In this document: piece by piece, positions 1,412 through 63,300 of the stretch
How positions within the stretch are numbered: position 1 is the first letter of the stretch
Layout of the letters: every line of letters starts with the position of its first letter
Assembly: GCA_001817915.1 (NCBI GenBank)
Contig: MHJJ01000014.1
Coordinates: 3,695-67,694 of the forward strand
Source: Candidatus Harrisonbacteria bacterium RIFCSPLOWO2_01_FULL_44_18
Lineage (GTDB): Bacteria; Patescibacteriota; Minisyncoccia; UBA6257; WO2-44-18
Direction of reading: 5' to 3'
Length of the DNA stretch: 64,000 bases
Notes under the pieces: generated by a model
What the model saw: the letters and a program-made list of their open reading frames with translations, nothing else
Databases searched by the model: none
Told to the model about the DNA's origin: nothing
Program-made: the position numbers and the translations under genes

Positions 1412-2218
1412 ATGGTCGTTGACGGACGGGCGATAGCGCGAAAGATAATCAAAAGACTGCGCGCTCAAAAAACTCCGGCTAAAACTTTGGTGGCTTTGAT
1501 AGTTGACGGCGCCAGTTCGGCGGAGAAGTTTCTTGTTCAAAAGGAAAAAATCGCGAAAAAGCTCGGAGTGAATTTCAAAATCTGCCGATTTTCCGCTTTG
1601 ACGGCAACCACAGAATCAATTTTGAAATCACTGCGGGATTATTGCGGATCGGAAAATGTCGGCGGCGTGATCATCGAACGGCCATTGCCCGTTTTCATTG
1701 ACGTCAGAATGCTATTGAAAGAAATTACGCCCGCCAAAAATGTGGAAGCAGTTAATGAATTGGCGTTGCTCGTTGAGCCGGCGACCAAAACTTTTTTTAC
1801 CATTTTGAGCGAAATTAAACGCGATCTTGCCGGGCAAAATATCGCGGCGATTGGGAGAAGCGAAACCGTCGCCCTTCCCATCGGCAGATTTTTGAATAAA
1901 GAGAGAGAAAGATTGAAGTACCAATCCTTTACAATTATTCCGGCCAGGGAACTTTATAAACGCGCCTGGACAGAATGCTTGAAAAGCGCGGATATCGTTG
2001 TCGCGGCCGCCCGCATCCCCAATTTGATTACCGAAGAAAAAATAAAAGAAGGAGTGGTAGTCATCGACTTCGGTAAAAATGTTGATTTTGAAAACTGTAA
2101 AAATAGGGCATCTTTCATCACTCCGCCTCACGGAGGCGTTGGCCCGATTCTCGTAGCGCACGTATTTTCTAACTTCTACGCTCTGAATGGATCAACCCCT
2201 TTTTCTCTAATTTGTTAG
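1412..2218 (+). CDS. folD: bifunctional methylenetetrahydrofolate dehydrogenase/cyclohydrolase FolD-like
   Basis: 268 aa. Has an N-terminal DGRAIARKI start, GRSETVALPIG (the GRSxxVGxP-like NADP site) and C-terminal PPHGGVGPILVA, all typical of FolD. Confidence 0.8.
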   Translation: MVVDGRAIARKIIKRLRAQKTPAKTLVALIVDGASSAEKFLVQKEKIAKKLGVNFKICRFSALTATTESILKSLRDYCGSENVGGVIIERPLPVFIDVRMLLKEITPAKNVEAVNELALLVEPATKTFFTILSEIKRDLAGQNIAAIGRSETVALPIGRFLNKERERLKYQSFTIIPARELYKRAWTECLKSADIVVAAARIPNLITEEKIKEGVVVIDFGKNVDFENCKNRASFITPPHGGVGPILVAHVFSNFYALNGSTPFSLIC

Positions 2219-2246
2219 CGCCCCGATTAATCGCCGGGGCGTTTTA
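2219..2246 (+). terminator. intrinsic terminator after folD
   Basis: Stem cgccccg / cggggcg followed by tttt. Confidence 0.7.
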
Positions 2247-2291
2247 TAATTTCTGCCAGAATAACAGCCCATTAGTATTTTATTGATCCCG

Positions 2292-2323
2292 TACTTCTAT
2301 TTCACAATCGGAATATAGAAGTA
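2292..2323. repeat. hairpin repeat family tacttctatttcacaatcgNNNNatagaagta (copy 1)
   Basis: 9-bp arms tacttctat / atagaagta. A near-identical copy lies at 54723-54754. Confidence 0.8.
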
Positions 2324-2456
2324 TTAACTTGAACGGTTATACGCCCCCTTGTAGCCAGTTTATTTTTATAGTAGGATATATCTATTGTTATATTGTATGG
2401 TTTGACGCGGCTCACCATAAAATGGCACGAATGGTAATCATCATGCGAAAAATCTT

Positions 2457-2846
2457 ATGATTGATTCTGAAACTAACAAAAAAATAAAGCCGGGCGCCGT
2501 GGTGCGTGTTTGGGAGAAAATACTCGCCGAGGGCGGGTCTTCGCCCGACGCCTCGTCAAAGGCAAGCGCGTCTCGGGAGCGCGCTTCTAGTGGAAAAGAA
2601 AGCGATAAATTCCGCTTTAGCAAGTTTGAAGGCCTTGTTTTGGCAAGAAAGCACGGCAATGAGTCCGGAGCCAGTTTTATTGTTCGCGCCACCGTTGCCG
2701 GCGTGGGCGTTGAAAAAGTTTATCCTATTCATTCGCCAATGATTGAAAAAGCGGAAATTATCAGTTCGCCTAAAAAAGTGCGCCGCGCCAAACTTTATTA
2801 CGTTCGCGGACTTTCTAAAAAAGAAACACGCCAGAAATTGGGATAA
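2457..2846 (+). CDS. rplS: 50S ribosomal protein L19
   Basis: The C-terminal part FEGLVLARKHGNESGASFIVRATVAGVGVEKVYPIHSPMIEKAEII..VRRAKLYYVR matches the L19 signature. Carries a Ser/Ala-rich insert of about 22 aa after EG. Confidence 0.9.
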   Translation: MIDSETNKKIKPGAVVRVWEKILAEGGSSPDASSKASASRERASSGKESDKFRFSKFEGLVLARKHGNESGASFIVRATVAGVGVEKVYPIHSPMIEKAEIISSPKKVRRAKLYYVRGLSKKETRQKLG

Positions 2847-2876
2847 TGATTGAAAAACGGGATATTTTTAAATCCT

Positions 2877-2958
2877 GCCCAGGTGGAGGAATCGGCAGAC
2901 TCACTACTTTGAGGTGGTAGCGCCGTAAGGCATGCGGGTTCGAATCCCGCCCTGGGCA
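2877..2958 (+). tRNA. tRNA-Leu(GAG)
   Basis: Manual cloverleaf: acceptor GCCCAGG/CCTGGGC, anticodon stem CTACT/GGTAG, loop TTGAGGT, long variable arm, T-arm GGGTTCGAATCCC. No encoded CCA. Confidence 0.85.
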
Positions 2959-2959
2959 C

Positions 2960-2987
2960 TTGACAAATTCTGTGGATATGCTATAAC
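2960..2987 (+). promoter_or_regulatory. sigma70-like promoter TTGACA-16-TATAAC (TGC-extended -10)
   Basis: cTTGACAaattctgtggatatgcTATAAC begins 2 nt after tRNA-Leu. It has the same architecture as the promoters at 13983 and 22190. Confidence 0.6.
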
Positions 2988-3079
2988 AGGGTTATACTTG
3001 AGTTGGGCGAGCTTATCGTGAGCTCGCTTGATAGCTCAAGGAATCAGTTCTTTGGCAAGGTTTTTGAGTAGGAGGCGCT

Positions 3080-3427
3080 ATGAGTGCTCTCACGATCGTT
3101 CTGGCGGCCAGCATTGTCATCATGGTTTTCGCGGCGGCCCTGATCTACAAGAGCAGGAAGTCCGGGAATCGCAGCGGCCTCGCGTCGGCGGATCAGCCCG
3201 CGCGTCCTCGCCCGAAGGTTCGGTTCGGCCAGTTCGAGACCGACCAACGGGTGGCCGTGCGTGGCATCGATCTCTTCGGGCGAGTCGAAGATCGCATGAT
3301 CGGCATGGGCAGGATCGTCGGCTTTGCCAATGGTGGCCGGGCGGTTCTTCAGATGGACAACCATCGGCCCGGCGTGTTCGTACGGCGAGTCATGCGCCGC
3401 CTCCGTTCGCTTGAGGTGCCTCGCTAG
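3080..3427 (+). CDS. hypothetical single-pass membrane protein encoded in a GC-rich island
   Basis: 115 aa. AGGAGG lies 6 nt upstream. N-terminal TM segment LTIVLAASIVIMVFAAALIY. Third codon positions are about 80% G/C in this frame, which favours it over the antisense ORF in the same register. Confidence 0.65.
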   Translation: MSALTIVLAASIVIMVFAAALIYKSRKSGNRSGLASADQPARPRPKVRFGQFETDQRVAVRGIDLFGRVEDRMIGMGRIVGFANGGRAVLQMDNHRPGVFVRRVMRRLRSLEVPR

Positions 3428-3543
3428 TATCTCGGTTCGACGGTAGAAGATCGTGGTTTCCGCTACGGTCGCAGTAACTTCCGTAGCGGACTCCTCGGCC
3501 TTCTGAAAAGGCCGACCACCACTCTCTCGGTTCGTCAGCGGAC

Positions 3544-3583
3544 GGCCGCCCAAGGTAACCCCTTGAGGCGGCCATTTTTTTTT
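3544..3583 (+). terminator. intrinsic terminator closing the GC-rich island
   Basis: Stem ggccgcc / ggcggcc followed by a T9 run. Two more hairpins lie upstream (ccgctacgg/ccgtagcgg at 3461-3491; tcggcc/ggccga). Confidence 0.75.
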
Positions 3584-3603
3584 GATAAAATCATATTACC
3601 GAT

Positions 3604-4119
3604 ATGTATGAATGTTGCACTGAAGCGATAGTTTTAGATAAAGAAGATTTAGGCGAGGCGGACGCCCGAGTTTTTTTATTTACAAAATCGTTAGGTAAAG
3701 TTGTGGCGAAAGTTAAAAGCGCGAAAAAAATAACTTCAAAACTATCTTCGCATTTGGAACCGCTGAATTTAATAACCGTCCGGCTGGTGGAAAAGAACGG
3801 TTTTCAAGTGGTAGATGTTTTATCGAATCGGAAACTCCCGCAATCAGAGCTTCATATTTTAAATATGGTTAATCAGCTAAGCGCCGAGAATCAGCAAGAT
3901 CTTGAACTTTGGTCGGTTTTGACCGGCAGCATTGATTTAAGGCCGGTTGATTTTCAGAAACAAATTTTGAGCGCCTTGGGCTTTGATCCGAAATTCGCGA
4001 GTTGTCAAAATTGCGACAGACCCAGACCAGATTATTTTTCTTTGCTTGATACGAGTTACTTATGCCAAATTTGCGCGTTAAAATCAGGGGTTAGACAAAA
4101 TTGTTTTAAATTAAATTAG
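3604..4119 (+). CDS. recO: DNA repair protein RecO (short form)
   Basis: 171 aa. N-terminal OB-like EAIVLDKEDLGEADARVFLFTK and C-terminal Cys pairs CQNC..CQIC are typical of RecO. Confidence 0.7.
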   Translation: MYECCTEAIVLDKEDLGEADARVFLFTKSLGKVVAKVKSAKKITSKLSSHLEPLNLITVRLVEKNGFQVVDVLSNRKLPQSELHILNMVNQLSAENQQDLELWSVLTGSIDLRPVDFQKQILSALGFDPKFASCQNCDRPRPDYFSLLDTSYLCQICALKSGVRQNCFKLN

Positions 4120-4121
4120 TT

Positions 4122-5840
4122 ATGCTAACGAAACTTTATTGGATTTTAGCAATTGTTTTAATTTTGCTTATCGGTTTAGCCGGATTTTTTTGGTTTCAAT
4201 CCCGTTCAAATCAAGGCTTGGATTTGCAAATTAACGCTCCCGACGAAGTTTTAATTGGAGTGCCTTTTGATTTGGAAATCAACGTAACCAACGATTCCGG
4301 CGGCATTTTAAAAGACAGCAAACTTTCATTGGCCATTCCCGAAGATGTCGTGTTTGTGGGAAGCGCCGTCGGTAAAACCGTGGAATATAAAACATTGGGC
4401 AATTTGGGCGTCGGCAATTTGACCAAAGAAAGTTTTAAACTGATGGCGTTGGGCGAGGAGAATAGCTTGAGGCAAATCGAAGCCACCCTTAGTTATTTGC
4501 CGACTTCTTTGGGATCGCGATTTGAAATCGTAAAAAAAATTGATTTGGAAGCGGGCCAATTCGGCTTAGTTGTTGATTTAACGGCGCCGGAAAAAGTTTT
4601 CAGCGGCGAAGATTTTGAGATCGCCGCTTCTTATAAAAATGTTTCCGGCATTGATCTTTCGGGCCTTATCCTTAAAATGGAATATCCGCCGACGTTTAAT
4701 TTTATAGAATCTTCCTTGGAGCCGGACGCCGGGAACAATGTTTGGAATTTGGGAGATTTGCGGCGAGGTTCGGAAATGGAATTTAAAATAAAAGGAAACC
4801 TTATCGGCCCGGACGATTCATTTTTTGATTTAAGAGCCAGCCTAGAGGCCAATTTTTTGGGTAAAACCTATGTCATCAGCGGTAAATCGGCCAACGTCTC
4901 TATTTCGCCGTCGCCGCTCTCTTTGCGAATTTTCCTAAACGAGGATCCTGATTATGTTGCCGGGCCGGGCGATGTTTTAAATTATTCTCTGGCCTACGCC
5001 AACAACACCGACGTCGCGCTGCGGGACGTTGTTATTGAAGCGAAATTAATCGGTGAAATGTTTGACCTAAAAACTTTAAATACTAACGGAATTACCCGTT
5101 CCGGTGAAAACGCGCTGGTTTGGAACGCGTCAAATTTGCCCGAGCTGGCAGTTTTACCGGTCGGCGCTTCCGGGACAGTGAATTTTCAGACAAAAGTCGC
5201 GAACAGCTACCCCATAAAAAGATTGAGCGATAAAAATTTTGTTCTAAAAGCGGAAGCTCAAATTGAGTCGCCGACTGTGCCGTATTTTGTGGGAGCGCGG
5301 AAAACAGTCGGTCTGGCAAAGCTGGAAACTAAAGTTGCCGGGCAAATAAAAGTTGATACCAAAGTGTATTTTCGAGACGCGGCTTCAGGAATTTTGAATA
5401 AAGGGCCGATGCCTCTTAAAGCGGGGCAACCGACTCAATTTACCGCGCATTGGTTTATTACTAATTTTGGAACAGACGTCAGCGGCGTGGAAGTCAGAGC
5501 ATTTTTGGAAGGAAATGTTAGAATGATAGCAGATAAAACAAAGAGCAATAGCGGCGCTCTTCCGGTTTATAACGAAAGAACGCAGGAAGTGGTTTGGCTG
5601 ATAGATCGGATTCCGGCTACTAAAGGAGTAATCGGCGACCCCCTTGAGGCGATTTTTCAAATTGAGGCAATGCCTTCCGCTAATTTGGCCGGGACTTATA
5701 TGCCGCTTATAAAAAATAGCTCAATAACCGCCACGGACGATTTTACCGGATTAAAATTAAGCGGTTCGGATTTAGCCGCGACCACCGCGCTGCCGGACGA
5801 TCCGACAGTCGGTCCGCAAGGCGGCATCGTTAAGAATTAG
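4122..5840 (+). CDS. hypothetical membrane-anchored surface protein with repeated beta-rich segments
   Basis: 572 aa with an N-terminal TM segment (LYWILAIVLILLIGLAGFFWF). Long ORF, no domain I can name confidently. Confidence 0.6.
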   Translation: MLTKLYWILAIVLILLIGLAGFFWFQSRSNQGLDLQINAPDEVLIGVPFDLEINVTNDSGGILKDSKLSLAIPEDVVFVGSAVGKTVEYKTLGNLGVGNLTKESFKLMALGEENSLRQIEATLSYLPTSLGSRFEIVKKIDLEAGQFGLVVDLTAPEKVFSGEDFEIAASYKNVSGIDLSGLILKMEYPPTFNFIESSLEPDAGNNVWNLGDLRRGSEMEFKIKGNLIGPDDSFFDLRASLEANFLGKTYVISGKSANVSISPSPLSLRIFLNEDPDYVAGPGDVLNYSLAYANNTDVALRDVVIEAKLIGEMFDLKTLNTNGITRSGENALVWNASNLPELAVLPVGASGTVNFQTKVANSYPIKRLSDKNFVLKAEAQIESPTVPYFVGARKTVGLAKLETKVAGQIKVDTKVYFRDAASGILNKGPMPLKAGQPTQFTAHWFITNFGTDVSGVEVRAFLEGNVRMIADKTKSNSGALPVYNERTQEVVWLIDRIPATKGVIGDPLEAIFQIEAMPSANLAGTYMPLIKNSSITATDDFTGLKLSGSDLAATTALPDDPTVGPQGGIVKN

Positions 5841-23404: not shown

Positions 23405-23631
23405 GCCACCTCCTTTCATATAAATCTCTGTCTGACTTCCGATGTCCCCAATATTGATAATTTTCCGAAGGGCAATCGGCTGGAAGCCGATCGGACATCG
23501 GAAGTCTCAATATTAGGACATCCGATATCCGTCCCGATGTTCATCGGGATCGCCTGCGGCGAGAATATAATATTTGGGATATCGGATGTCTGCCAGCAGC
23601 GCGACCGAGAGCTTATATGAAAGGAGGTGGC
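23405..23631. repeat. compound nested palindrome N3
   Basis: Perfect 18-bp outer arms gccacctcctttcatata / tatatgaaaggaggtggc. Inner pairs are gacttccgatgtcc/ggacatcggaagtc, catccgatatcc/ggatatcggatg and cccgatg/catcggg. Confidence 0.9.
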
Positions 23632-23981: not shown

Positions 23982-24464
23982 ATGATCAAAGTCGCGCTTT
24001 TTAATGAAATTTCCCATGAATTAGGCAATACTCTTCTTGTGGATGTCACAAGCAGGATCGTTGAAAGGATTAATAATCTTTTGAGGCAGTTGTCAGTCAA
24101 CGCTCCATATTGGACTATCGGATGTTTCGCGGAGTTTTTGCGGCAGTCCAATAATCATTTAGTTGTTGCTATTGATGGCAAAATTATTGCTGGTATGGGA
24201 ACGGTTATTTTGAGCTATTCTTTAATGGGCCGTCACGCGAGGATCGAGGATGTGATTGTAGATAAACCATATCTCGGTAAGGGTTTGGGTCGAAAAATTG
24301 TCGAGGAATTAATCAGAATCGCCAACAAGGAAGGAGCAAGATGGATTGATTTAACCAGCAATTCTTCGCGAGTCGGGGCACTGAAGCTTTATAGAAGCTT
24401 GGGATTTAAGGATGTGGCGACAAATTGTTTGCGGCTGGCTTTGGGAGAGCAGGATTCGAGCTAG
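23982..24464 (+). CDS. GNAT family N-acetyltransferase
   Basis: The segment IEDVIVDKPYLGKGLGRKIVEELI is the acetyl-CoA binding motif (Q/RxxGxG/A). Start chosen at MIKVALF. The last codons lie in an arm of N4. Confidence 0.8.
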   Translation: MIKVALFNEISHELGNTLLVDVTSRIVERINNLLRQLSVNAPYWTIGCFAEFLRQSNNHLVVAIDGKIIAGMGTVILSYSLMGRHARIEDVIVDKPYLGKGLGRKIVEELIRIANKEGARWIDLTSNSSRVGALKLYRSLGFKDVATNCLRLALGEQDSS

Positions 24465-24713
24465 CATCAATTTAGTGAGCCAATTCCCGCCCATCTTCTT
24501 TGTTACTCGTCGCTTATGTGCCTATTGGCACACTACGCTCCTCGCGCCTTGAATCTGGACAGGAATTGGCTCACCCGAAGGGAAGAGAGAATTTGAGCCA
24601 AGTTCGAGGAACGACGAGGAGGTTGTGCTGGTAAGCACATCGACGAGGAGTGACAAAGAAATTGGCTCAAATTCTCTCTTCTAAATTTGACGCCAGTTCG
24701 AATCCTGCTCTCC
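24444..24713. repeat. compound nested palindrome N4
   Basis: Outer arms ggagagcaggattcgagctagcatcaatttag / ctaaatttgacgccagttcgaatcctgctctcc. Inner arms tgagccaattcc/ggaattggctca and aagagagaatttgagccaa/ttggctcaaattctctctt. Shares about 60 nt with 48682-48751. Confidence 0.9.
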
Positions 24714-24737
24714 TAGAGAAATAACCGCGGTTTCAAA

Positions 24738-24761
24738 AAATTCCCTCGAATGAGGGAATTT
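24738..24761. terminator. hairpin aaattccctc gaat gagggaattt
   Basis: Lies just 3' of the minus-strand ORF 24760-25464, overlapping its stop codon. Its sequence is similar to the hairpin at 22736. Confidence 0.5.
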
Positions 24762-25464
24762 AAATTGGATTTTGAATAATGTCGGGGATCATTGATGGAA
24801 CCAGTCCCAAGCGGTTACGCGCGGAACGGGGATCGCAAAACATGATCATAATCTTGTTTGTTCTGAAATGAACGTATGCTTGATATTGAGATAGATCGCC
24901 GTCGCCATTATCGGCGCACCAAATCGCCTGTTCATTAAAAATAAGTTTTTTTCTAAGCAAGCGGCGGATCAGCCAAGTGTAGACGTAGACTACGGCCCTT
25001 TCCCGAATTTGCGTTTCTCCAGTGAAGCGTTCTTCTTGATCGAAAAAACTTTTCCGCAAACTGCCGCTTAGAATCGCCTTTCTTAGCAAATACCACTTGA
25101 GTTCGCAGGTCTCGCGCTTCACGAAATCCATTTTTGTAATATCTGCCGCCTCTTCGCTTAAAATCGAGTTTTTCGCCTGGACAAATTTTACCCCCGGAAT
25201 TTTACCGCATAGAAATATAATCCTATTTATTGTGAGCGGGCGATTGGCGCCGTCTTGAGTTAGGCCCGGGAAGAGCACATAGTCGTCTTTACATTCTATG
25301 AGTTTAGCCGGAGAAAAGGGGATGACATCCAGACGCGTTTTTTCTGGAATAGATAATTTTGTTTTCCAAATCTCGCAGACTTCCATATAATCCATAAAAT
25401 TGTTTCCCATTATTTTTCGAGCGCCCCAGCGGGAGGTTCCATCATCTGTCATTTCGCGCCTCAT
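24760..25464 (-). CDS. hypothetical protein, no recognisable family
   Basis: 234-aa ORF. The start may instead be the second ATG (25452), which sits behind GAGG. No motif recognised. Confidence 0.5.
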   Translation of the reverse strand: MRREMTDDGTSRWGARKIMGNNFMDYMEVCEIWKTKLSIPEKTRLDVIPFSPAKLIECKDDYVLFPGLTQDGANRPLTINRIIFLCGKIPGVKFVQAKNSILSEEAADITKMDFVKRETCELKWYLLRKAILSGSLRKSFFDQEERFTGETQIRERAVVYVYTWLIRRLLRKKLIFNEQAIWCADNGDGDLSQYQAYVHFRTNKIMIMFCDPRSARNRLGLVPSMIPDIIQNPI

Positions 25465-26440: not shown

Positions 26441-26715
26441 AGAACCCATCTCAATAATAATCCCCAAACGCGTTCTTGGCTAGGGCCTGTCTGAGTGCGA
26501 GGCTTTCCGACGCAGGCGTACCTGAAAGGTACGTCGAGGAGGAATAACGAAGCAATCGGACAGGATAGCCAGAACCCGAAGGGATATGGCTCTTTTTGTC
26601 CATCGCGGCGTTGTCTCCTTTTCATCGTATTCTTTGAGTACGACTTCGTCGTCGCGCCTTGCGCTGAATGAAAAGAGTTCACATCGCGTTAGGAATTATT
26701 ATTGAGATGGGTTCT
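26441..26715. repeat. compound nested palindrome N5
   Basis: Perfect 21-bp outer arms agaacccatctcaataataat / attattattgagatgggttct, with several inner hairpins (cgtacctgaaaggtacg and others). Confidence 0.9.
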
Positions 26716-26754: not shown

Positions 26755-29373
26755 ATGATTACCAAAGAAACTTTGCGAAAATCTTTTTGGGCTTTGCCGG
26801 TTCACGAGGCGCTTGACGCGCTTGAAACTACTGCCAGCGGGTTGATGCGGGATGAAGCAGAAGAGCGTCTTAGGGTTTTCGGGAAAAACGTTTTAGCCAA
26901 AAGGATAAGAATAACTAAATTAAAAATTCTTGTCAGGCAGTTCGGAAGCCCGCTGATTTTTCTTTTGTTAATTGCCGGCGGCGTTACTTTGTTTTTGAAG
27001 GATTTTAAGGATGCCGGATTTATTCTTGCCGCCGCTTTAATAAACGCGATTTTGGGATTTTATCAAGAAAGCAAAGCCGAGACGGCGTTGGCGCATTTAA
27101 GAACTTACATCAGAGAACGCAATCGCGTATTTAGAGATAATCACGAGATAGAAGTTGATTCCAGCGAATTAGCGCCGGGAGACGTCATCCATTTATCTCA
27201 AGGGGATCGGATACCCGCGGACTGCCGATTAATTTATGTCAACGATTTTGCCGTTGATCAAGCGATTTTAACCGGCGAATCCCTGCCGGTTTCTAAAGAT
27301 ATCAAGCCCGCCAGTTTTCAGGCAGTCCTCGCGGATCAGAATTCAATGGTCTTTAGCGGCACGGTGGCGGTACAGGGGTTTGCCAATGCCGTTGTTTCCG
27401 CTACCGGCAAATACACCGAATTGGGGAAAATCGCCGCTCTAGTCGCGAGGCCGGAAAAGGAACGCACTCCTCTTCGCGAGGCAATAAATAAATTCAGTAT
27501 TAAGGCCAGCATTATTTTGATCGGATTAACGGCCCTGATTTTTTCGCTCGGCGTTTTGACGGGAAGTTCATTGCTGGATATGTTTTTGATTTCGGTGGCG
27601 ATCGTAGTTTCGGCGATACCGGAAGGATTGCCAATCGCGATGACCGTCATTTTGGCGGTAGGCGTGCAAAGATTGGCGTGGAAAAAAGGAATTGTCCGCA
27701 AATTGCTCGCGGCGGAAACAATGGGCAGCACCTCGGTAATTTTGACTGATAAGACCGGCACCTTGACTGAAGCCAAGATGGAACTTTCGGAAATAAAAGT
27801 TTATAAGGAGGACCGCGCGGAAGAGCGGAAAGAAACGATATTAAAACTCGCCATCCTTAATAGCGACGTGGTGATAGAAAATCCCGGCGATTCGCCTTTT
27901 GACTGGGAAATTATTGGCCGGCCGCTGGAGGTGGCGATTGTCAGATCGGCGGCCAAATTTGATATTTTGGCGCCGGATGTTCGTAAGAAAATGAAAGCCG
28001 TCGATTATCTTCCATTTAGTTCCGTAAATAAATTTTCGGCAAACGTTATTCAGCAAGGTTCGAAATATTTACTTAGCGTGTTCGGCGCGCCGGAAATTTT
28101 ATTAAAATTTTCTAATTTGCCCGATAATTCGCGCCGCCAAATTCATAGAGATGTCGACAAGGTCGCCTATGGCGGCGCGAGAGTTTTAGCAGTCGCGACA
28201 AAAGAATTATCGGGCATTGAAGGAGTTTCGCTTCGCCAGAAAGAAATTTTTAAAGATTTGGATTTTTTGGGAACAATGTCTTTTAGGGACCCGATTCGCA
28301 AAGAAGTCAGAGACGCGGTTAATCGGGTCGCTCAAGCCGGTGTCCGCACTTTAATTGTCACGGGAGATCATCGCGGCACCGCGGAGTTTGTAGCTAAAGA
28401 AGTCGGCATTTCTATTGATGGCGATAGTGTCATTGACGGCGCTGAACTTGACGCGCTGAACGATGAAGATCTTAAAAATAGACTTCCGAATTTAAGGATT
28501 GTTTCGCGGGTAAGTCCGGAAGGAAAATTGAGGATAGTTAAAGCGCTTCAGGGGATAGGGGAGATTGTGGCAATGACCGGCGACGGCGTGAATGACGCCC
28601 CAAGTTTAAAGGAAGCTGATATCGGCGTTAGCATGGGTTCGGGCACCGATGTTGCTAAAGATGTATCGGATTTAGTTTTGCTTGACGATAATTTTGAAAC
28701 CATCGTGGAAGCCGTGGCTGAGGGCCGAAGGATTATACAAAATATCAGAAAAGTAATCGTTTATCTGCTTTCAAATGCTTTGGACGGATTGATTTTAATT
28801 GGCGGGTCCTTGCTTATCGGCTTGAGCTTGCCGTTGAACGCGCTGCAGATTCTTTGGGTTAATTTTTTTACCGATAGTTTTCCGGCAATCGCCTTGGCTT
28901 TTGAAAAAAAGATTGACCATTGGGTTGATCGTCCCGCGCCAATCCATAAAGGATTGCTTGACTCGGAAATGAGATTTTTGATTCAAGTGATCGGAGCGCT
29001 CACGAGTGTTTTGCTTTTGGTTTTATACGTTGGCTTGCTTTATTTGGGTATTGAAGAAAAATTGGTTCACACTTTTATCTTTGCCGCCTTTGGGACATAC
29101 AGTTTGTTTTTGGTTTTCGCGGTTCGAAGTTTGAGACGGAGTATTTTCACTTATAATCCTTTTTCAAACCCCGCGCTTTTGGGAAGCGTGATTTTAGGAT
29201 TGGGATTAATGGCGATCGCGATTTACGTTCCTTTTCTCCAAAAATTATTCGGCACCATGCCCTTGCCGTTAAACTGGCTCTGGGGCATCGTGGGTTTGGG
29301 AATTTTGAATGTCTTCGCGATTGAGTTTGGAAAGTGGGTTTTTAGAAAAAAACAACTAACAACTAACAACTAA
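26755..29373 (+). CDS. cation-transporting P-type ATPase (type II, Ca2+/Mg2+-like)
   Basis: 872 aa. The DKTGTLT phosphorylation site, TGES, TGDGVNDAPSLK and about 10 TM segments are present. Confidence 0.9.
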   Translation: MITKETLRKSFWALPVHEALDALETTASGLMRDEAEERLRVFGKNVLAKRIRITKLKILVRQFGSPLIFLLLIAGGVTLFLKDFKDAGFILAAALINAILGFYQESKAETALAHLRTYIRERNRVFRDNHEIEVDSSELAPGDVIHLSQGDRIPADCRLIYVNDFAVDQAILTGESLPVSKDIKPASFQAVLADQNSMVFSGTVAVQGFANAVVSATGKYTELGKIAALVARPEKERTPLREAINKFSIKASIILIGLTALIFSLGVLTGSSLLDMFLISVAIVVSAIPEGLPIAMTVILAVGVQRLAWKKGIVRKLLAAETMGSTSVILTDKTGTLTEAKMELSEIKVYKEDRAEERKETILKLAILNSDVVIENPGDSPFDWEIIGRPLEVAIVRSAAKFDILAPDVRKKMKAVDYLPFSSVNKFSANVIQQGSKYLLSVFGAPEILLKFSNLPDNSRRQIHRDVDKVAYGGARVLAVATKELSGIEGVSLRQKEIFKDLDFLGTMSFRDPIRKEVRDAVNRVAQAGVRTLIVTGDHRGTAEFVAKEVGISIDGDSVIDGAELDALNDEDLKNRLPNLRIVSRVSPEGKLRIVKALQGIGEIVAMTGDGVNDAPSLKEADIGVSMGSGTDVAKDVSDLVLLDDNFETIVEAVAEGRRIIQNIRKVIVYLLSNALDGLILIGGSLLIGLSLPLNALQILWVNFFTDSFPAIALAFEKKIDHWVDRPAPIHKGLLDSEMRFLIQVIGALTSVLLLVLYVGLLYLGIEEKLVHTFIFAAFGTYSLFLVFAVRSLRRSIFTYNPFSNPALLGSVILGLGLMAIAIYVPFLQKLFGTMPLPLNWLWGIVGLGILNVFAIEFGKWVFRKKQLTTNN

Positions 29374-29457
29374 CAACTAACAACTAACAACTAACAACTA
29401 ACAACTAACAACTAACAACTAACAACTAACAACTAACAACTAACAACTAACAACTAA
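29353..29457. repeat. heptanucleotide tandem repeat (CAACTAA)x15
   Basis: 105 bp of perfect repeat. It overlaps the last 21 nt of the ATPase CDS and abuts the stop codon of comF. Confidence 0.95.
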
Positions 29458-30167
29458 ACCTTGGCTATTACCAGTCCGATGACTCTTGCCGCGCCGGCTT
29501 TTCGTAAAATTTTTACTGCTTCGTTCATAGTACTGCCGGAAGTAAATACGTCATCGATCGGGATTATCTTTTTGCCCTTAATCAACTCCGGATTTTTTAC
29601 CGCGAAGCATCCGGCAATGTTCTCTTGCCTTTTTTCTAATCCTTTTATTTCCGGCTGGGGCTTAGTATTTTTTATTCTGATTAAATTGCCGGTCATCAAT
29701 TTCACGCCAAGGGTTTTGCTGATTTCTTCGGCAATGGCTTCAGATTGATTAAACCCGCGCCCCCTTTCTCGAGAAGGATGAAGCGGGATCGGGATAATCA
29801 AACTTGCGGGACTTATTGGCCTTATAGGCCCTATGTAGGCCAGCAGGATTTTCGCCAGCGGTTTGGCGGCGCATTTTTGTTTTTTGTACTTGAGCCGCCA
29901 AATCAGTTTTTTTACTTTTTCATCGTCATAGGACGTTGCCGCGCCCAATAAGTAGGAGTCTTTTTTGTGGCAGACTTTTTTATTGTCGGCTAATCTTGCC
30001 CGACAGATCGAGCAATACAACGCGGTATTTATAGGAATAGAATTAAAACAAGAAGCGCAGATATATTCTTCCTTTTCGGTTTTTTGAAGAGCTTTTTCGC
30101 AAATCAAACAAATCGGCGGGGAGAGAATATCCAAAACAGCGCCTTTTAATCTTATTAAGTAATTCAT
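29454..30167 (-). CDS. comF: ComF family protein (phosphoribosyltransferase domain, ComFC-like)
   Basis: 237 aa. N-terminal Cys pairs (CLIC..CASC, CSIC) and the PRTase motif IIPIDDVFTSGSTMNEA. Confidence 0.8.
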   Translation of the reverse strand: MNYLIRLKGAVLDILSPPICLICEKALQKTEKEEYICASCFNSIPINTALYCSICRARLADNKKVCHKKDSYLLGAATSYDDEKVKKLIWRLKYKKQKCAAKPLAKILLAYIGPIRPISPASLIIPIPLHPSRERGRGFNQSEAIAEEISKTLGVKLMTGNLIRIKNTKPQPEIKGLEKRQENIAGCFAVKNPELIKGKKIIPIDDVFTSGSTMNEAVKILRKAGAARVIGLVIAKV

Positions 30168-30390: not shown

Positions 30391-31470
30391 ATGGCTTTCG
30401 ATTTTTTTAAATCTTTACTCGGCGCCCAAAATTATTTGGCGGTTGATATCGGCACTACTTCGATAAAGGTTTTAGAATTTTCAAAAAAATCCAACGGCCG
30501 GCCGGCTCTTCGCAATTACGGATTTTTGGAAACCTACGGCTATCTGGAAAGATTTAATGAAGCCCTTCAAACCAGTAGTTTGAAAATGCTTGATGTGGAG
30601 GCGGCGAAGTATTTAAAAATAGTTTTGGATCGCGCCGGAATCAAGTCGCGGTCGGCGGTCGCGTCCATACCCGCCTTTATGGCCTTTACCACTTTAATCG
30701 AACTGCCAATGATGAGCGAAGCTGAAACTTCGCAGACAATGGATTTTCAGGCAAAACAGTATATTCCCATCCCGGTAAAAGCGGCCGCGATTGATTGGAT
30801 AAAGATAGGCGAACGCGAGGACGAAGAGGGGCGAAAGAGACAGCAAGTTTTTTTGATTTCCGTTCCAAAGGAACAAATTGAAAAATATCAAAAGATTTTC
30901 CGGCTAGCCGGTTTGAAATTAGCCGCTTTGGAAATCGAGGGTTTGAGTCTTGCTCGAGCGCTTAGCCGAGGCATTAAAGAGCCGGTTTTGATTGTTGATA
31001 TCGGCGCTCGTTCAACCAGCCTGACCGTCGGAGTAGACGGGCTTTTGAGATTCGCCGGTCAAACCGATTTTGCCGGCGGCTCCTTGACTCAAGCAGTGGC
31101 TTCGGGTTTGGGCATCGCCGCCCGACGAGCTGAAGAATTGAAGTGGCGGAAGGGCTTAATCGCCACCGGCGGCGAGCAAGAGTTATCCACACTGATGCTA
31201 CCGTTTTTAGATGTTATAATTAATGAGGCGAAAAGAGTCAAGCAGAATTACGAAACCAGTTATCAGAATAAGATAGCCGCGGTTATTTTGGCGGGAGGCG
31301 GGGCAAATTTGTTGGGTATAGAGAAATATTTTGGTCAACAGATAGAACTGCCGGCATCTTTAGCCGCTCCCTTCAAAGAGATTGACTATCCGCCGGAGAT
31401 TGCCTCGTTAATCAAAGATTTGGGACCGGCATTTTCAGCCGCGATAGGACTAGGGATGAAAGGGCTATAA
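30391..31470 (+). CDS. pilM: type IV pilus assembly protein PilM (actin-like ATPase fold)
   Basis: 359 aa. Has the YLAVDIGTTSIKVLEF start, and sits first in a pilMNO-pilB-pilT-pilC context. Confidence 0.85.
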   Translation: MAFDFFKSLLGAQNYLAVDIGTTSIKVLEFSKKSNGRPALRNYGFLETYGYLERFNEALQTSSLKMLDVEAAKYLKIVLDRAGIKSRSAVASIPAFMAFTTLIELPMMSEAETSQTMDFQAKQYIPIPVKAAAIDWIKIGEREDEEGRKRQQVFLISVPKEQIEKYQKIFRLAGLKLAALEIEGLSLARALSRGIKEPVLIVDIGARSTSLTVGVDGLLRFAGQTDFAGGSLTQAVASGLGIAARRAEELKWRKGLIATGGEQELSTLMLPFLDVIINEAKRVKQNYETSYQNKIAAVILAGGGANLLGIEKYFGQQIELPASLAAPFKEIDYPPEIASLIKDLGPAFSAAIGLGMKGL

Positions 31471-31612
31471 CGAAGTAATCGCGAACAACGCGAATCTATG
31501 CAAAATAATGCTAATAATTTATTCGCGTTATTTCGAATCAGATTAGCATTATTCGCGATTACTCCGATTCGTGTTATTTTGAAACAAATTAGCATTATTC
31601 GCGATTACTCCG
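31471..31612. repeat. pilus-operon junction repeat, copy 1 (stop of pilM to start of pilN)
   Basis: Starts cgaagtaatcgcgaacaacgcgaa immediately after the TAA and ends attagcattattcgcgattactccg immediately before the ATG. Confidence 0.9.
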
Positions 31613-32146
31613 ATGAATCAAAATCTTGTTGATAAATTTGAAACGGAAAGATTGCCGACCGGGTGGCCATGGCGGTTATTTTTGTTCAGTTTTTTGCTTT
31701 TCGCGGCGACGGTCGTCAGTTATTTTGGTTTGTCATTGGGCTATAAGCCGTTTTTAAACAGGCAAATTGCCGGAAAGGAAGCGGAAGTTAATCAATTGGC
31801 GGCGGCCGTTCCCGAAGCCGAGCAGGAAAATTTTATTAGATTTTATTCTCAATTGGCGAATTTGGAGAAAGTCTTAAACAACCATGTTGTTTCTTCCGCC
31901 CTCTTTCCATTTTTAGAAAGAAATACCAACGTCCAGATATATTACAATATCTTGGATTTCAGCGCTTCGGAGAAGAGATTGACTTTGGATGGCGTTGCTC
32001 AAAACTACGATATTTTAGCGCAGCAGCTCGAGGCTTTCACTCAAGCTAAAGAGGTTGAGCGGTTTTTAATCAATGAATCGCAATTAAGCGAAGGAAAAAT
32101 AAGATTTCGGGTATCGCTATTTTTAGCGCCGCAAGTATTGAGATAA
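31613..32146 (+). CDS. pilN: PilN-like type IV pilus assembly protein
   Basis: 177 aa with a single N-terminal TM segment, located after pilM. Confidence 0.6.
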   Translation: MNQNLVDKFETERLPTGWPWRLFLFSFLLFAATVVSYFGLSLGYKPFLNRQIAGKEAEVNQLAAAVPEAEQENFIRFYSQLANLEKVLNNHVVSSALFPFLERNTNVQIYYNILDFSASEKRLTLDGVAQNYDILAQQLEAFTQAKEVERFLINESQLSEGKIRFRVSLFLAPQVLR

Positions 32147-34957: not shown

Positions 34958-34966
34958 TATAATTAA

Positions 34967-35108
34967 CGAAGTAATCGCGAACAACGCGAACCTATGCAAA
35001 ATAATGCTAATAATTTATTCGCGTTATTTCGAATCAAATTAGCATTATTCACGATTACTCCGATTCGTGTTATTTTGAAACAAATTAGCATTATTCGCGA
35101 TTACTCCG
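34967..35108. repeat. pilus-operon junction repeat, copy 2 (pilB to pilT)
   Basis: More than 90% identical to copy 1 by eye and ends directly at the pilT ATG. Confidence 0.9.
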
Positions 35109-36182
35109 ATGGACGATTACAAACAAAAACTAGATGAATTACTGTTGACTACGGCGAAACAGAACGCTTCGGATCTTCATTTGGCCGTCGGTCGCCGTCC
35201 GACTTTAAGGATTGACGGCGCTTTAGTGCCTTTGCAAAAAGAGACGATATTAACTCCCGAGTCAGCCGAGGGTTTGATCAGCGCCTTTTTAACGCCGGAG
35301 CAAAAGGAAGAATTTCTAAAAAATAAGGAGCACGATCTTTCCTATTCTTTTGAAGACAAAGCCCGGTTTCGCGTCAATGTTTTTTATCAGCGGGGATTTA
35401 TGGCCGCCGCTTTGCGCTTGATACCGGCTCAAATAAGGACAGTCGAAGAACTTAATTTGCCGCCAGTCTTGCACGATTTTACCCGTCTTTCTCAAGGTTT
35501 TGTTTTACTTGTCGGTCCGGCCGGCCACGGCAAATCTACAACGATGGCCGCGCTGGCGGATGAAATCAATCATCAGCGCACCGCTCATATCATTAGCATT
35601 GAAGATCCCATTGAGTATTTATTTTCTCAAGATCGGAGCATTATTTCTCAAAGAGAGGTGAGAAATGATACGCCGGATTTTCACAAAGCGCTCCGTTCTG
35701 TTTTAAGACAAGACCCGGATGTGGTGATAATCGGCGAAATGCGCGACCCGGAGTCAATCTCAACGGCGCTGACGGCCGCCGAAACCGGCCACTTGGTTTT
35801 TTCAACGCTTCATACCAATTCCGCCTCCCAAACGATAGATAGAATTATTGATAGTTTTCCGCCCGCCCAACAGAGCCAGATTACATCTCAATTATCCGCC
35901 ACATTAGTCGGCATTGTTTCTCAACGTTTAATTCCGCGGGTTGACGGCGGCCGTATGCCGGCTTGCGAAGTAATGCTCGTTAATTCGGCGATCAGAAATT
36001 TGATCCGCGAGAGAAAGGCGTATCAAATTGATTTGGTGATTGAAACCAGCATGCAGGAAGGAATGTTAACTCTTAACCGTTCTTTAATCGGTTTGGTGAA
36101 AAAGAGGCAGATTTCAATTGAAAACGCGGAGCTTTATTCATTGAACCCGAGCGAGTTGAGGATATTATTGGAGAGAACATAA
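35109..36182 (+). CDS. pilT: twitching-motility / retraction ATPase PilT
   Basis: 357 aa. Walker A GPAGHGKST and ASDLHL motifs are present. PilT-size hexameric ATPase. Confidence 0.9.
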   Translation: MDDYKQKLDELLLTTAKQNASDLHLAVGRRPTLRIDGALVPLQKETILTPESAEGLISAFLTPEQKEEFLKNKEHDLSYSFEDKARFRVNVFYQRGFMAAALRLIPAQIRTVEELNLPPVLHDFTRLSQGFVLLVGPAGHGKSTTMAALADEINHQRTAHIISIEDPIEYLFSQDRSIISQREVRNDTPDFHKALRSVLRQDPDVVIIGEMRDPESISTALTAAETGHLVFSTLHTNSASQTIDRIIDSFPPAQQSQITSQLSATLVGIVSQRLIPRVDGGRMPACEVMLVNSAIRNLIRERKAYQIDLVIETSMQEGMLTLNRSLIGLVKKRQISIENAELYSLNPSELRILLERT

Positions 36183-36331
36183 CGAAGTAATCGCGAACAA
36201 CGCGAACCTATGCAAAATAATGCGAATACTGTTAACGGAGCAATCGCTAATAATGCGAATTTTGGCAAAATAATGCTAATAATTTATTCGCGTTATTTTG
36301 AATCAGATTAGCATTATTAGCGATTACTTCG
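36183..36331. repeat. pilus-operon junction repeat, copy 3 (pilT to pilC)
   Basis: Has the same termini as copies 1 and 2, with a different internal segment. Confidence 0.9.
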
Positions 36332-37540
36332 ATGAAATATAGATACAGCGCCAGAACTAAAGTTGGGGATTTGCAGGTGGGATTTGTCGAGGCCGTTAAT
36401 CGCGACGCCGCGGCCAATATTTTAATTAGCCACGATCTTTTTGTTTTGAGTTTGGAATCGGCGGAGGCGTCAAGGTGGTTTGGCTGGATTTTGGGTTTTT
36501 TCCGACGAGTAAAAAAGATTGACCTGATGATTTTTACCCGCCAATTCGCCACCATGCTTGAAGCAAAAATTCCCTTAGGCGATTCCCTGAAAAGTCTTTA
36601 CGCTCAAACTAAGAATGTCGCTTTGAAAGAAACAATTTTTGAAATTTCTTCGGATATTGACGCCGGCCTTTCGCTTTCTCAATCTTTAAGCCGCCACGCC
36701 AATATCTTTTCGGAATTTTACATTAATTTGGTGCAGGCTTCGGAAGTGACCGGCCGCATTGAAGAGGCGGTTGGTTTTTTGGCAGACTATCTAGACAAGG
36801 AAATCTCTTTATTGGGACGCGTCCGCAGCGCCCTTATCTATCCGGTTTTTGTTATCGGCTTATTCATAGTCGTGGTTGGCGTTATGGTCGGCACGGTCTT
36901 CCCTCAGCTTTTGCCGATTTTTGAGGAGTCGGCGGCGGAGCTGCCTTTAATCACCAGCCTGCTTTTAAATTCCGGAAATTTCATCGCTGATTGGTGGTTG
37001 GCGATTCTGGTTATTCTGGCAATTCTTATCACTGTTTTGGTTGATTATTTCCGCACCGAAGAGGGCAGAATTATTCAGGATCAGTTGCTTATTAACACAC
37101 CGGTTGTGGGAGGCTTATTTAGAAAAATGTATGTCGCGAGATTCGCGGAGGCGGTCAGCGTTTTAATAAAAGGAGGAATTCCGATTGCTCAAGCAATGGA
37201 AATAAGCAGTCATACTGTTGGAAGTTTTGTTTATCGCGAGGCATTGCATGAGGTGGCGGAAGCTATCCGCGGGGGCGAGTTGCTGTCGCAAGCCTTGTCG
37301 CGCGACACGAATTATTTTCCGCCGATCGTCAGCCAAATGGTGGCGGTAGGCGAACGCACCGGCAAGCTGGACGAGATGTTTGGACGCGTAGCCAAATTTT
37401 ATACGCGCGAGGTTGATGCCACAGTGGGTAATTTAGTAGAATTAGTTCAGCCGACTCTTATGGTGGTTATCGGCTTAGGAGTGGGATTGCTTTTTGCGGC
37501 TGTATTGTTACCGATTTACAATTTGGCAGCAACATTTTAG
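36332..37540 (+). CDS. pilC: type IV pilus platform protein PilC (GspF family)
   Basis: 402 aa with two GspF-type repeats and 3-4 TM segments. Confidence 0.9.
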   Translation: MKYRYSARTKVGDLQVGFVEAVNRDAAANILISHDLFVLSLESAEASRWFGWILGFFRRVKKIDLMIFTRQFATMLEAKIPLGDSLKSLYAQTKNVALKETIFEISSDIDAGLSLSQSLSRHANIFSEFYINLVQASEVTGRIEEAVGFLADYLDKEISLLGRVRSALIYPVFVIGLFIVVVGVMVGTVFPQLLPIFEESAAELPLITSLLLNSGNFIADWWLAILVILAILITVLVDYFRTEEGRIIQDQLLINTPVVGGLFRKMYVARFAEAVSVLIKGGIPIAQAMEISSHTVGSFVYREALHEVAEAIRGGELLSQALSRDTNYFPPIVSQMVAVGERTGKLDEMFGRVAKFYTREVDATVGNLVELVQPTLMVVIGLGVGLLFAAVLLPIYNLAATF

Positions 37541-48664: not shown

Positions 48665-48681
48665 CGTCAATCCCGCGCCTA

Positions 48682-48751
48682 GGAGAGCAGGATTCGAACT
48701 AGCGTCAAATTTAGAAGAGAGAATTTGAGCCAAGTTCGAATCCTGCTCTCC
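48682..48751. repeat. 19-bp-stem hairpin related to N4 (probable metK terminator)
   Basis: Stem ggagagcaggattcgaact / agttcgaatcctgctctcc. The loop shares sequence with 24444-24713. Confidence 0.85.
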
Positions 48752-48810
48752 TATTATCCGCCTAAATGGCGGATTTTTGTTTTTGAATAAACAAGTTATA
48801 ATTAAACTTA

Positions 48811-51219: not shown

Positions 51220-51296
51220 TATATAATAATTCCGCTAAAATTTCTAAAGTTCCTTAGTTCCTTGCGTCAAAGATTTATATAAAGGGAGGTGGCAGG

Positions 51297-60319: not shown

Positions 60320-63300
60320 ATGGCTAAAACAAAAGCAAAAAAAGCGAGTAAAAATGAGGAGAAACAGCCTTCTTATACTGCCAAAGACATTTATGTTTTG
60401 GAAGGATTGGAGCCGGTTCGAAAGCGGCCGGGGATGTATATTGGCACAACTGATGTTGCTGGCCTACACCACCTAATTTATGAAGTCGTTGATAATTCAA
60501 TTGACGAGGCGATGGCCGGATACGCGAAAAATATTCAAGTTGAGTTTTTGCCGGGCAATCGGATAGCGGTAACCGATGATGGCCGCGGCATTCCGGTAGA
60601 GATTCATAAACAAACCAAAAAATCCGCGCTTGAAACCGTGATGACAACTTTGCATGCCGGAGGGAAATTTGGCGGCGAATCTTATAAAGTCTCCGGCGGC
60701 TTGCATGGCGTCGGCGTTTCGGTAGTTTGCGCCCTCTCAAAGTGGATGAAAGCGGAGGTTTGCCGCGATAAAGGACTTTATGTTCAAGAATATGAGCGCG
60801 GTAAACCGCAATATAAAGTTAAAAAAATAGCAAAGTGCGATAGTACCGGCACTAAAGTAACTTTTGAGCCGGATCCGGAAATTTTTAAAACGATTGAATT
60901 CGACCGCAAGCGCGTCTTGGATCATTTGCGCCAGCAAGCTTTTCTTACTAAAGGCGCAAGAATCGAAGTCATCGATATTCGCGAAAAAACGCCTTTTTAC
61001 CACGCCTTCTATTTTGACGGCGGACTTTTATCATTTATCAAATTTCTTAACCGCAGCGAAAAACCGCTGCAAGAGACGCCTTTTTACATTAATAAAACCT
61101 CGGAGGGCGTGGAGGTTGAGGCGGTTTTTACTTATAATAACGAATTGGAAATTCAGGAATTGAGCTTTGCCAATAATATTTATACTCCTGATGGCGGGAT
61201 GCATTTGACCGGTTTTCGTTCGGCCTTAACCCGCACTTTAAATGATTATGCTCGCGGCAACGATTATGTTAAAAAAGATGAAGATAATTTGACTGGTGAT
61301 GATGTGAGGGAGGGTCTTGTTGCCATTGTTTCGGTGAAAATTCGCGAGCCGCAATTTGAAGGCCAGACTAAGGCAAGGTTAGGAAATTCTGAAGCCAGGA
61401 CGGCGGTTGAGGGCGTTATCGGTGAAGCGCTTAAGGAATTTTTGGAAAGAAATTCTGTCGATGCCAGGCGTATCATGGAAAAATGCCTGTTGGCCGCTAA
61501 GGCCAGGAAAGCGGCTAAAGCGGCGAAAGAAACCGTGCTACGCAAGGGGATTTTAGAAGGATTAACTCTGCCCGGAAAATTAGCCGATTGTAGTTCAAGA
61601 AACCCCGAAGAATCGGAGTTGTTTATCGTGGAAGGAGATAGCGCCGGTGGGTGTTTTTTCGGTGAAACAAAAGTAGCTTTATTAGATGGAAGGAATATCT
61701 CGTTTAAAGATTTAGTTGAGGAAGAAAAAAAAGGAAAGAAAAATTTTTGTTATACCATAAAAAAAGATGGCCATATTGGCGTTGCTCCTATTTTAAATCC
61801 AAGAATAACCAGGCAGAATGCTAAAGTGGCTAAGGTTATTTTGGATAATGGTCAAGAAATTATATGTACGCCAGGTCATAAGTTTATGCTTAGAGATGGC
61901 ACTTTTAGAGAGGCCAAAGATTTAAATTGCAGAGATTCTTTAATGCCTTTATATCGAAAAAAATCGGAGATTGGAGGGCGAATAACAATTGATGGGTATG
62001 AAATGGTCTACAATCCTAAAGAAAATTTTTGGAGGTTTACTCATGTTTTATCAGATGGGCTTAATTTAGAAAATAAAACGTATTTTGAAACTAATGGACC
62101 ACAAAGGCACCATAAAGATTTTAATAAATTAAATAATAATCCGAATAATATTACCCGACTATCCAAAGAAGATCATTTTAGAATCCATCAAGAAATTGCC
62201 CTGACCGTATTGAGAAGCCCAGAGGTTTTAGAAAAATTAAGGAAAATAAGGCAATCCCCCGAATATAGAAATAGGATAAGCAAAAAAATGCGCGAGCCCA
62301 GAATGAGAGCCATACTTAGCGAAAGAGCCAAAAAACAATGGGAAAACGAGAATTATAAAAAATTTATGGCTCAGAAGTTTTTAGGATTTTATAAAAATAA
62401 TGAGGAATACAGAAATAAAAATAAAAAATTACTGTACAAAAGCCAGATGGAGTATTGGAACAACGAAGACAACAGAAAGAAACAAGCCGAAAGGGTTAGA
62501 AATTATTTCCATAAAAATTTAGTCATAAGGTCTTGGCTTTCTCAAATCGCGAAACAGCAGTGGGATGATTCAGCTCTAATAAAATGGAGGGCGAACAAAA
62601 CCAAAGAACAATGGACTCAAGCATTTAGAATTAAAAGGAGCATGGCTTATAGCAAGACATATAAAGAGAAGGCCCTGAAATTGCTAAAAGAACTTTTTGA
62701 TGGAAATGGGAAAATTGAAAAAGGAGAATATACACGGGAAAGACTTATTAGAAAAGACAAATCTATCCTTAGATATGAAACCATTTGTGAAAGATTTTTT
62801 GATAGTGATGAAAATAAATTGAAAGAAGCCGTAATAAATTACAATCATAAAATTAAAGCAGTGATTCCATTAGAAGAAAAGATGGACGTATACGATATAG
62901 AGGTTCCCAATACTCACAATTTTGCTCTTGCTTCTGGAGTTTTTGTTCATAATAGTAGTAAGCAAGGACGTGACCGGCGAACTCAAGCAATTCTTCCGCT
63001 TAAGGGCAAGATTTTGAATGTGGAAAAATCAAGGATTGATAAAATGCTTTTGAACAAAGAGATTAAAGCGTTAGTGGTTGCCATAGGAACGGCGATAGCC
63101 GAGTCGTTCGATATCAATAAATTGCGCTACCATAAAGTGATTTTAATGACTGACGCCGATGTTGACGGATCGCATATCCGGACTTTGCTTTTGACTCTTT
63201 TTTATCGCTACTTTCCCCAAATTATTGACGAAGGCCATCTTTACATCGCCCAACCCCCGCTTTATCGCGTTCAAAAAGGCAAAGAAATAAGCTATATTTA

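Follow-up and report, generated by a model that had tools for sequence, protein, structure and literature searches.

Bacterial MITEs are marked by terminal inverted repeats (TIRs), terminal 5'-TA-3' dinucleotides, target-site duplications and long stem-loops, and they can overlap genes in frame or at the C-terminal end (PMC2229807, PMC5896051). Among them, Correia/NEMIS of Neisseria and RUP of Streptococcus pneumoniae are TA-flanked elements thought to be moved by IS630-type transposases (PMC2229807). The palindromic family reported herein resembles both, which are likewise small and non-coding, have TIRs (of 9-26 bp in their case) with TA at both termini, occupy intergenic regions and often gene ends, form long stem-loops if transcribed, and occur in full-length and deleted size classes (PMC2229807). 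However, the present family is larger (~270 nt), contains two hairpin modules with tandem G·A helices, has no known matching insertion sequence, carries a terminal repeat that equals a tRNA 3' end, and resides in hosts of the candidate phyla radiation.

Three other systems share part of this design. QMITE1 and QMITE2 of Coxiella burnetii and the Rickettsia palindromic elements overlap functional genes at the 3' end or lengthen them by a few codons, and in turn serve as insertion sites for other mobile elements (PMC5896051); they have no sequence relationship to the present family, which puts one short tail, GEQDS[NS] followed by a stop, on unrelated genes. The CIR repeats of Caulobacter and Brucella are predicted to form an RNA with two long stem-loop arms and a linker and not an end-to-end hairpin (PMC2229807), whereas the present family has a closing outer stem in addition to two arms; CIR also lacks TIRs and is not found in genes. 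REPINs are built from a short structured unit present twice in inverted orientation, can fold into one long or two small hairpins and are dispersed in intergenic regions, but they are tied to RAYT and lack the TIRs and TA flanks that the present family has, and no RAYT gene was seen here. Bacteria of the candidate phyla radiation, whose genomes are very small, are commonly portrayed as having little mobile DNA, and a full-text literature search found no paper on MITEs in these bacteria.

In the 64-kb stretch of DNA analysed here (the window), the palindrome N4 (24444-24713, 270 nt) and a hairpin at 48682-48751 (70 nt) are probably a full-length and an internally deleted copy, respectively, of a non-autonomous MITE-like element of groundwater Parcubacteria. 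The family is new, while this kind of element is already known. Comparison across loci shows dispersed near-identical, truncated and short copies that are bounded by 18-bp TIRs and usually adjoin TA, and it places N4 as inserted relative to its orthologous loci.

N4 matched the family profile with an nhmmer E value of 5e-56. It lies between the coding end of a GNAT acetyltransferase gene and an old hairpin of convergent genes. Its left TIR, GGAGAGCAGGATTCGAGC (24444-24461, + strand), matches at 17 of 18 positions and its right TIR (24696-24713, - strand) at all 18; TA directly follows the right end, and the left flank is TG, not TA. Module A (24475-24574) has 24-nt stem arms at 24475-24498 and 24551-24574 that are 83% complementary, and they enclose a conserved 52-nt interior with a small hairpin GTGCC-TATT-GGCAC (24518-24531) and the pyrimidine-rich strand on +. 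Module B (24582-24681) has 24-nt arms at 24582-24605 and 24658-24681 that are 96% complementary, with an interior that is purine-rich on + and a small hairpin at 24625-24638. Two folds are predicted, namely the pair of modules or a single long hairpin, in which the apex CCGAAGG (24575-24581) between the modules would be the tip. The folding energy deviated strongly from that of shuffled sequence (z = -11.9 and -13.9 for the two strands), and the only ORFs that cross the element, of 44-47 aa, are short and not conserved.

Four matches to the 18-mer GGAGAGCAGGATTCGAAC are present in the window and form two inverted pairs, at 24444-24461 (one mismatch) and 24696-24713, and at 48682-48699 and 48734-48751, where shuffled sequence gives an expectation of 0.03 matches. 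In addition, the 59-nt segments 24658-24716 and 48679-48737 are 97% complementary. The first-pass annotation, which had reported that the two loci share arms and inner segments and had quoted the inner palindromes of N4, was thus correct in both respects, and the shared segments are significant and lie outside any RNA gene in the window.

The GNAT gene (23982-24464, + strand) ends in ...LRLALGEQDSS, and N4 supplies its last 6 codons, GEQDSS from the left TIR, and its stop codon (TAG, 24462-24464). An overlap of the left arm with the last codons and the stop had been proposed and is borne out, except that 6 codons plus the stop are involved instead of 7 and that the arm carries one mismatch. 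The closest two orthologs, P0002 and P0003 (68% identity), end in ...RLELS or ...RLAL and have no GEQDSS tail, so the claim that the gene takes its end from the element arm agrees with the ortholog comparison. At the ortholog loci L216 and L217, N4 is absent, 30-40 nt separate the GNAT stop codon from the same convergent gene, and the window locus is ~270 nt longer. Because the orthologs lack both the tail and the 270 nt, N4 is read as a non-autonomous MITE-like insertion. Both ortholog loci keep a hairpin, AATTCCCTC...GAGGGAATT, which corresponds to AAATTCCCTC-GAAT-GAGGGAATTT between the convergent genes of the window (24738-24761). The consensus terminator scan made no call at this hairpin, and a scan of 24300-24900 found no terminator-like site; the hairpin is probably the original bidirectional terminator. 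From this comparison of loci, N4 reads as an insertion between the GNAT stop codon and this probable terminator.

Three models of the empty site were reconstructed. Removal of 24444-24713 with no duplication gives an end in ...LAL with a TAG stop, a TA duplication with a TTA>TTG change gives ...LALEK, and counting TA as part of the element gives LA; all three are plausible gene ends, and orthologs of 68% identity leave room for each of these junctions. The identical GNAT protein was found on Rifle aquifer contigs, and the element is present on every population contig that encodes the identical GNAT or GatC, so that no insertion polymorphism was seen among them. The population variant L122 of the N4 locus lacks 19 nt of module A (TATTGGCACACTACGCTCC) and has one SNP. 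Two further contigs, L125 and L126, stop at the N4 apex or a few bases from it, as an assembly break is expected at a palindrome.

The GEQDSS tail is present in the public protein annotation of Candidatus Harrisonbacteria, the source organism, and GEQDS[NS] followed by a stop also closes ORFs in L135, L169/L189, L183 and L193/L203. An alternative frame, RRAGFEL..., closes ORFs in L159, L170, L174 and L202. Because translation through the terminal repeat soon reaches a stop in just two frames, either with TA/G as the stop or with GEQDS[NS], the same tail appears on unrelated genes.

The 70-nt copy (48682-48751) is flanked by TA on both sides and lies between the metK stop codon (48664) and the metK terminator, and its folding also departed from that of shuffled sequence (z = -12.2). 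It had been taken for the metK terminator itself. However, the sequence that follows it is TATTATCC, with no T-run, and a canonical intrinsic terminator with a 7-bp G+C stem and a T-run (48756-48784, + strand; ATCCGCC-TAAAT-GGCGGAT at 48756-48774, then TTTTGTTTTT) begins 5 nt 3' of the element and outside it. A role of the family hairpins as Rho-independent terminators was ruled out, as no T-run follows them. No empty metK-gatC site was found in relatives, of which the nearest MetK homologs are ~73-75% identical with synteny lost.

Metagenomes were scanned with the 18-mer plus one base (…GARCT), a pattern that leaves out the canonical T-stem. The scan returned 76 loci, about half of which were tRNA- or tmRNA-like 3' ends. 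The remaining ~35 non-tRNA loci carried the family element and came from groundwater metagenomes (Rifle and Hainich). At least 10 copies are full-length, measure 267-279 nt and share one architecture; there are also short forms (52-70 nt), solo ends and copies truncated where a contig stops. The 18-bp TIRs are conserved across the ~35 loci. The layout runs from the 18-nt repeat through a ~12-nt linker, module 1, an apex of the form CCCC-loop-GGGG, module 2 and a second linker to the other terminal repeat. The linker sequence is palindromic (CATCAAGTTGAG / CTCAAnTGATG). Each module has a ~22-bp stem, whose sequence varies freely between copies yet stays complementary, around the conserved 52-nt interior, which reads on its purine-rich strand GGCGCGACGACGAAG, small hairpin, GAGGAGGAGCAACAAAGAA. 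Modules 1 and 2 are paralogues that have diverged and lie in inverted orientation, and the purine-rich version therefore comes first when the element is read inward from either end.

TA adjoins about 36 of 52 element ends and stands on both sides of 8 of the 17 complete copies, the short window copy included, although TA is self-complementary and could belong to a 20-bp terminal repeat. Within one sample, identical ends are joined to different flanks (L143, L147 and L196 for one end; L161, L164 and L196 for the other), and contig breaks recur inside the element. Relative to neighbouring genes the element has no preferred orientation, being found either way round between genes that are convergent, co-directional or divergent. 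Truncated copies are frequent, as are chimeric ones.

N4 departs from its relatives in that the pyrimidine-rich version comes first on both strands. Its module A is identical to a module of L180 at 99 of 100 positions, with the interior inverted relative to the linker and apex, and both N4 modules are flipped in place relative to those of its relatives. A related element at 26441-26715 (275 nt), in the divergent intergenic region between the thymidine kinase and cation-ATPase genes, has the same two-module core and a CCCGAAGGG apex within unrelated 27-nt outer arms (AGAACCCATCTCAATAATAATCCCCAA), and the copy in L134 (1526-1870) is chimeric, with one GGAGAGC-type end and one 26441-type end. Judged from these two copies, the outer arms are not strictly coupled to the core.

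The sizes of 270 and 70 nt, both under a limit of ~400 bp, the absence of coding capacity of its own, the 18-bp TIRs, the dispersed near-identical copies and the contrast between filled and empty sites are those of a MITE. An autonomous insertion sequence with the same ends was found neither in the 64-kb window nor beside solo ends. About 25 of the 31 window ORFs of at least 220 aa were scanned or identified, and none was a transposase; the window and the loci with solo ends cover only genome fragments, so that the absence of a transposase from them is a weak negative. Viral contigs gave no match to the terminal repeat, the repeat plus TA, the core motif or the arm of the 26441 element, and blastn with N4 gave no match among plasmids and phages.

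Under this MITE-like interpretation, a transposase acting in trans would recognise the terminal repeats and insert the element at TA, probably duplicating it; the TA flanks alone point to the IS630/Tc1-mariner group, and mobilisation might by analogy proceed as in MITEs moved by such enzymes, for example Correia and RUP. A parent insertion sequence that is lost or was not seen may have supplied its ~130-bp ends, joined together, as the halves of the element, which would account for the purine-rich module coming first from either end. Insertion of N4 would have pushed out the old GNAT stop codon and added GEQDSS. As each of the two copies in the window sits downstream of a stop codon and ahead of a pre-existing terminator, they would be co-transcribed as 3' UTR hairpins.

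The family elements rewrite gene C-termini, occupy 3' UTRs, break metagenome assemblies and mark points of rearrangement between strains. Knowledge of the family prevents the annotation of spurious protein tails, the calling of its hairpins as terminators and the acceptance of contig breaks as real ends.

The structure of the modules sits less comfortably with a MITE. In an alignment of 27 modules (A2), the proposed pairs were standard in 87.8% of cells, compared with 64% in shuffled controls and 31-44% after sliding of the partner column, and 26 of the 30 proposed pairs showed changes on both sides. Inside the "loop", a Watson-Crick pair recurs at every third position, with switches between C-G and G-C (columns 41-75 and 44-72), and 21-26 of the 27 modules have G·A and A·G at the two positions between those pairs. 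The purine strand is thus predicted to form a helix with two to three tandem G·A pairs flanked by covarying Watson-Crick pairs, 5'-CGACGACGA/5'-GAGGAGGAG, and each strand of the element has one such hairpin. In the inner helix, G·T was counted 40 times and A·C 6 times, which places the wobble on the purine strand. Because palindrome homogenisation alone would not keep mismatches, the alignment argues that the purine strand is under selection as a folded single strand. The family offers a clean natural alignment of a tandem G·A helix, whose role, in transposition or at the RNA level, is testable.

A transposase that binds double-stranded ends leaves both the non-canonical helices and the strand-specific wobble unexplained. 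It is conceivable, though we think it unlikely, that the conserved part is a folded single strand and not a transposase-bound duplex, and that the copies are undescribed structure-recognised elements of candidate-phyla-radiation bacteria or a host RNA module. If so, modules could flip in place (N4 versus L180), arms could swap (26441-26715 and L134) and mini-palindromes could nest. The termini would imitate stable RNAs at their 3' ends, with a tRNA as the model in this family and a 16S-like CACCTCCTTTC in the neighbouring element at 23405-23631.

The order in which the two size classes arose has also to be considered. The first-pass annotation had proposed that N4 is an expanded form of the metK-type hairpin, a two-arm palindrome that came first and into which the modules were inserted later. 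Parts of the family fit such nested growth. Hairpins of arm plus linker only exist in L159 and L149 (55 nt), and the two-module core of 26441-26715 lies within unrelated arms. Moreover, a 45-nt mini-palindrome, TCCCGA-hairpin-TCGAGGATCCTCGA-hairpin-TCGGGA, is inserted between GAGGAGGAG and CAAC of the L134 module and at the homologous site in L199, where it also occurs free-standing (L199 sites 29-76 and 256-330). For the step from 70 nt to N4, however, the evidence runs the other way. The 70-nt form keeps GAAGAGAGAATTTGAGCCAA (20 nt), one stem arm of module B whose partner is absent from it, and the insertions would have had to bring the exact complement of this arm. An 18-nt direct repeat of N4 (AATTTGAGCCAAGTTCGA / AATTTGACGCCAGTTCGA) falls at the right junction of the short form. 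Furthermore, the ~270-nt two-module layout is kept across diverged copies, whereas the short forms differ between subfamilies, which is the pattern of independent deletions. Nested growth as the origin of N4 is thus decidedly unlikely, although nested insertion is seen elsewhere in the family. On account of the unpaired module-B arm, the direct repeat at the junction and the conserved layout, the 70-nt form reads as a deletion derivative that later spread and not as a precursor hairpin; it is 97-100% identical at 5 loci, namely the window, L169 (two copies, one of them common with L189), L174 and L184.

The strong covariation, the conserved tandem G·A pairs and the wobble confined to the purine strand would also suit a structured RNA that serves the host, either a cis-acting 3' UTR module (a stabiliser, processing site or bidirectional terminator) or a small RNA gene. 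The position of both window copies between a stop codon and a terminator fits as well, and MITE hairpins are described to modulate mRNA via RNase III or RNase E (PMC2229807). Such a function as the reason for the element is nevertheless improbable, as the element is absent at the orthologous GNAT locus, its copies occupy promoter-side divergent regions as well as convergent and co-directional ones in either orientation, and truncated or chimeric copies abound. A terminator role also lacks the T-run, and Rfam gave no family at the gathering threshold and only chance-level matches at a permissive one. It is conceivable, though again unlikely, that a mobile MITE-like element has been taken over by its hosts as an orientation-independent module for RNA processing or stability.

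Selection on a single-stranded fold with non-canonical pairs also brings to mind an element that depends on hairpins in single-stranded DNA, of the REPIN/RAYT or IS200/IS605 kind. The modules of the purine strand, once folded, would then be recognised by an HUH tyrosine transposase, with the terminal repeats in a secondary role. The two inverted modules, each with a small hairpin closed by GT...AC, are reminiscent of REP doublets, and the arms are exchangeable while the core is kept. REP and IS200/IS605 elements have no TIRs and no target-site duplications. In the present family, by contrast, TA flanks are enriched at either end and the 18-bp repeats stay perfect even in the spread 52-70-nt forms, which contain no complete module; moreover, no Y1 transposase gene was found among the scanned window ORFs or at the inspected loci. 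We thus regard this mode of movement as very improbable and retain a transposase that acts on the terminal repeats.

The terminal repeat itself resembles the end of a tRNA. Read as its reverse complement, the 18-mer equals exactly the T-loop, T-stem and acceptor 3' end that many Bacteroidota have in their tRNA-Tyr(GTA), and a scan of the genome collection with the bare 18-mer returned only tRNA-Tyr genes, from Bacteroidota and similar, with no family members. The Rifle contig L145 (2345-2708) carries a tRNA-Leu(CAA) whose 3' end is the 18-nt terminal repeat, with three partial direct copies of this 3' end upstream, ~92 nt apart. The sequence GTTCGAATCC, which makes up 10 of the 18 bases, is near-universal in tRNAs, so that an exact match to some tRNA is unsurprising. 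That the arms are tRNA 3' ends duplicated by integrating elements, or att-site remnants of an integrase, as these matches and the direct element copies bracketing a 3.3-kb cassette in L169 might suggest, can be set aside as barely credible, because the copies are inverted and not direct around a conserved core, neither locus holds any of the 9 tRNAs called in the window by ARAGORN and Rfam or folds as a cloverleaf, and the contigs that carry the element have tRNA-Tyr genes whose acceptor end differs.

The L169 cassette (2138-5807, also in L189) lies between two direct 70-nt copies, each with a 114-nt inverted repeat, and the outer flanks are TA. It contains three ORFs, one of which is DNA methyltransferase-like with a PPY motif, and it may represent either a composite transposon or a cassette that integrated at the element.

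The window holds at least four MITE-like nested palindromes of three sequence families in 64 kb. One of these, at 23405-23631, is a 227-nt nested palindrome with perfect 19-nt terminal repeats (GCCACCTCCTTTCATATAA) and inner hairpins at 23434-23506 and 23517-23590. Within this repeat lies CACCTCCTTTC, a sequence similar to the 16S rRNA 3' end, with a strong Shine-Dalgarno sequence as its complement. A 99%-identical copy occurs in another context in L203/L193, the context of L125/L126 departs from the window exactly at 23405, and a third hit resembling the terminal repeat lies at 51275-51293.

Other repeats were also observed. A ~148-nt repeat with inverted repeats inside it occurs three times (31468-31615, 34964-35111 and 36233-36380) between type IV pilus/secretion genes (PilM-like, T2SSE and T2SSF) and has no similarity to N4. 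Just past the cation-ATPase gene, the heptamer AACAACT forms a tandem array of ~18 copies (29337-29471). Finally, the gyrB gene at 60320-63553 encodes a protein of 1077 aa with an intein, matched by an N-terminal splicing region at residues 445-523 and a C-terminal one at residues 856-879.
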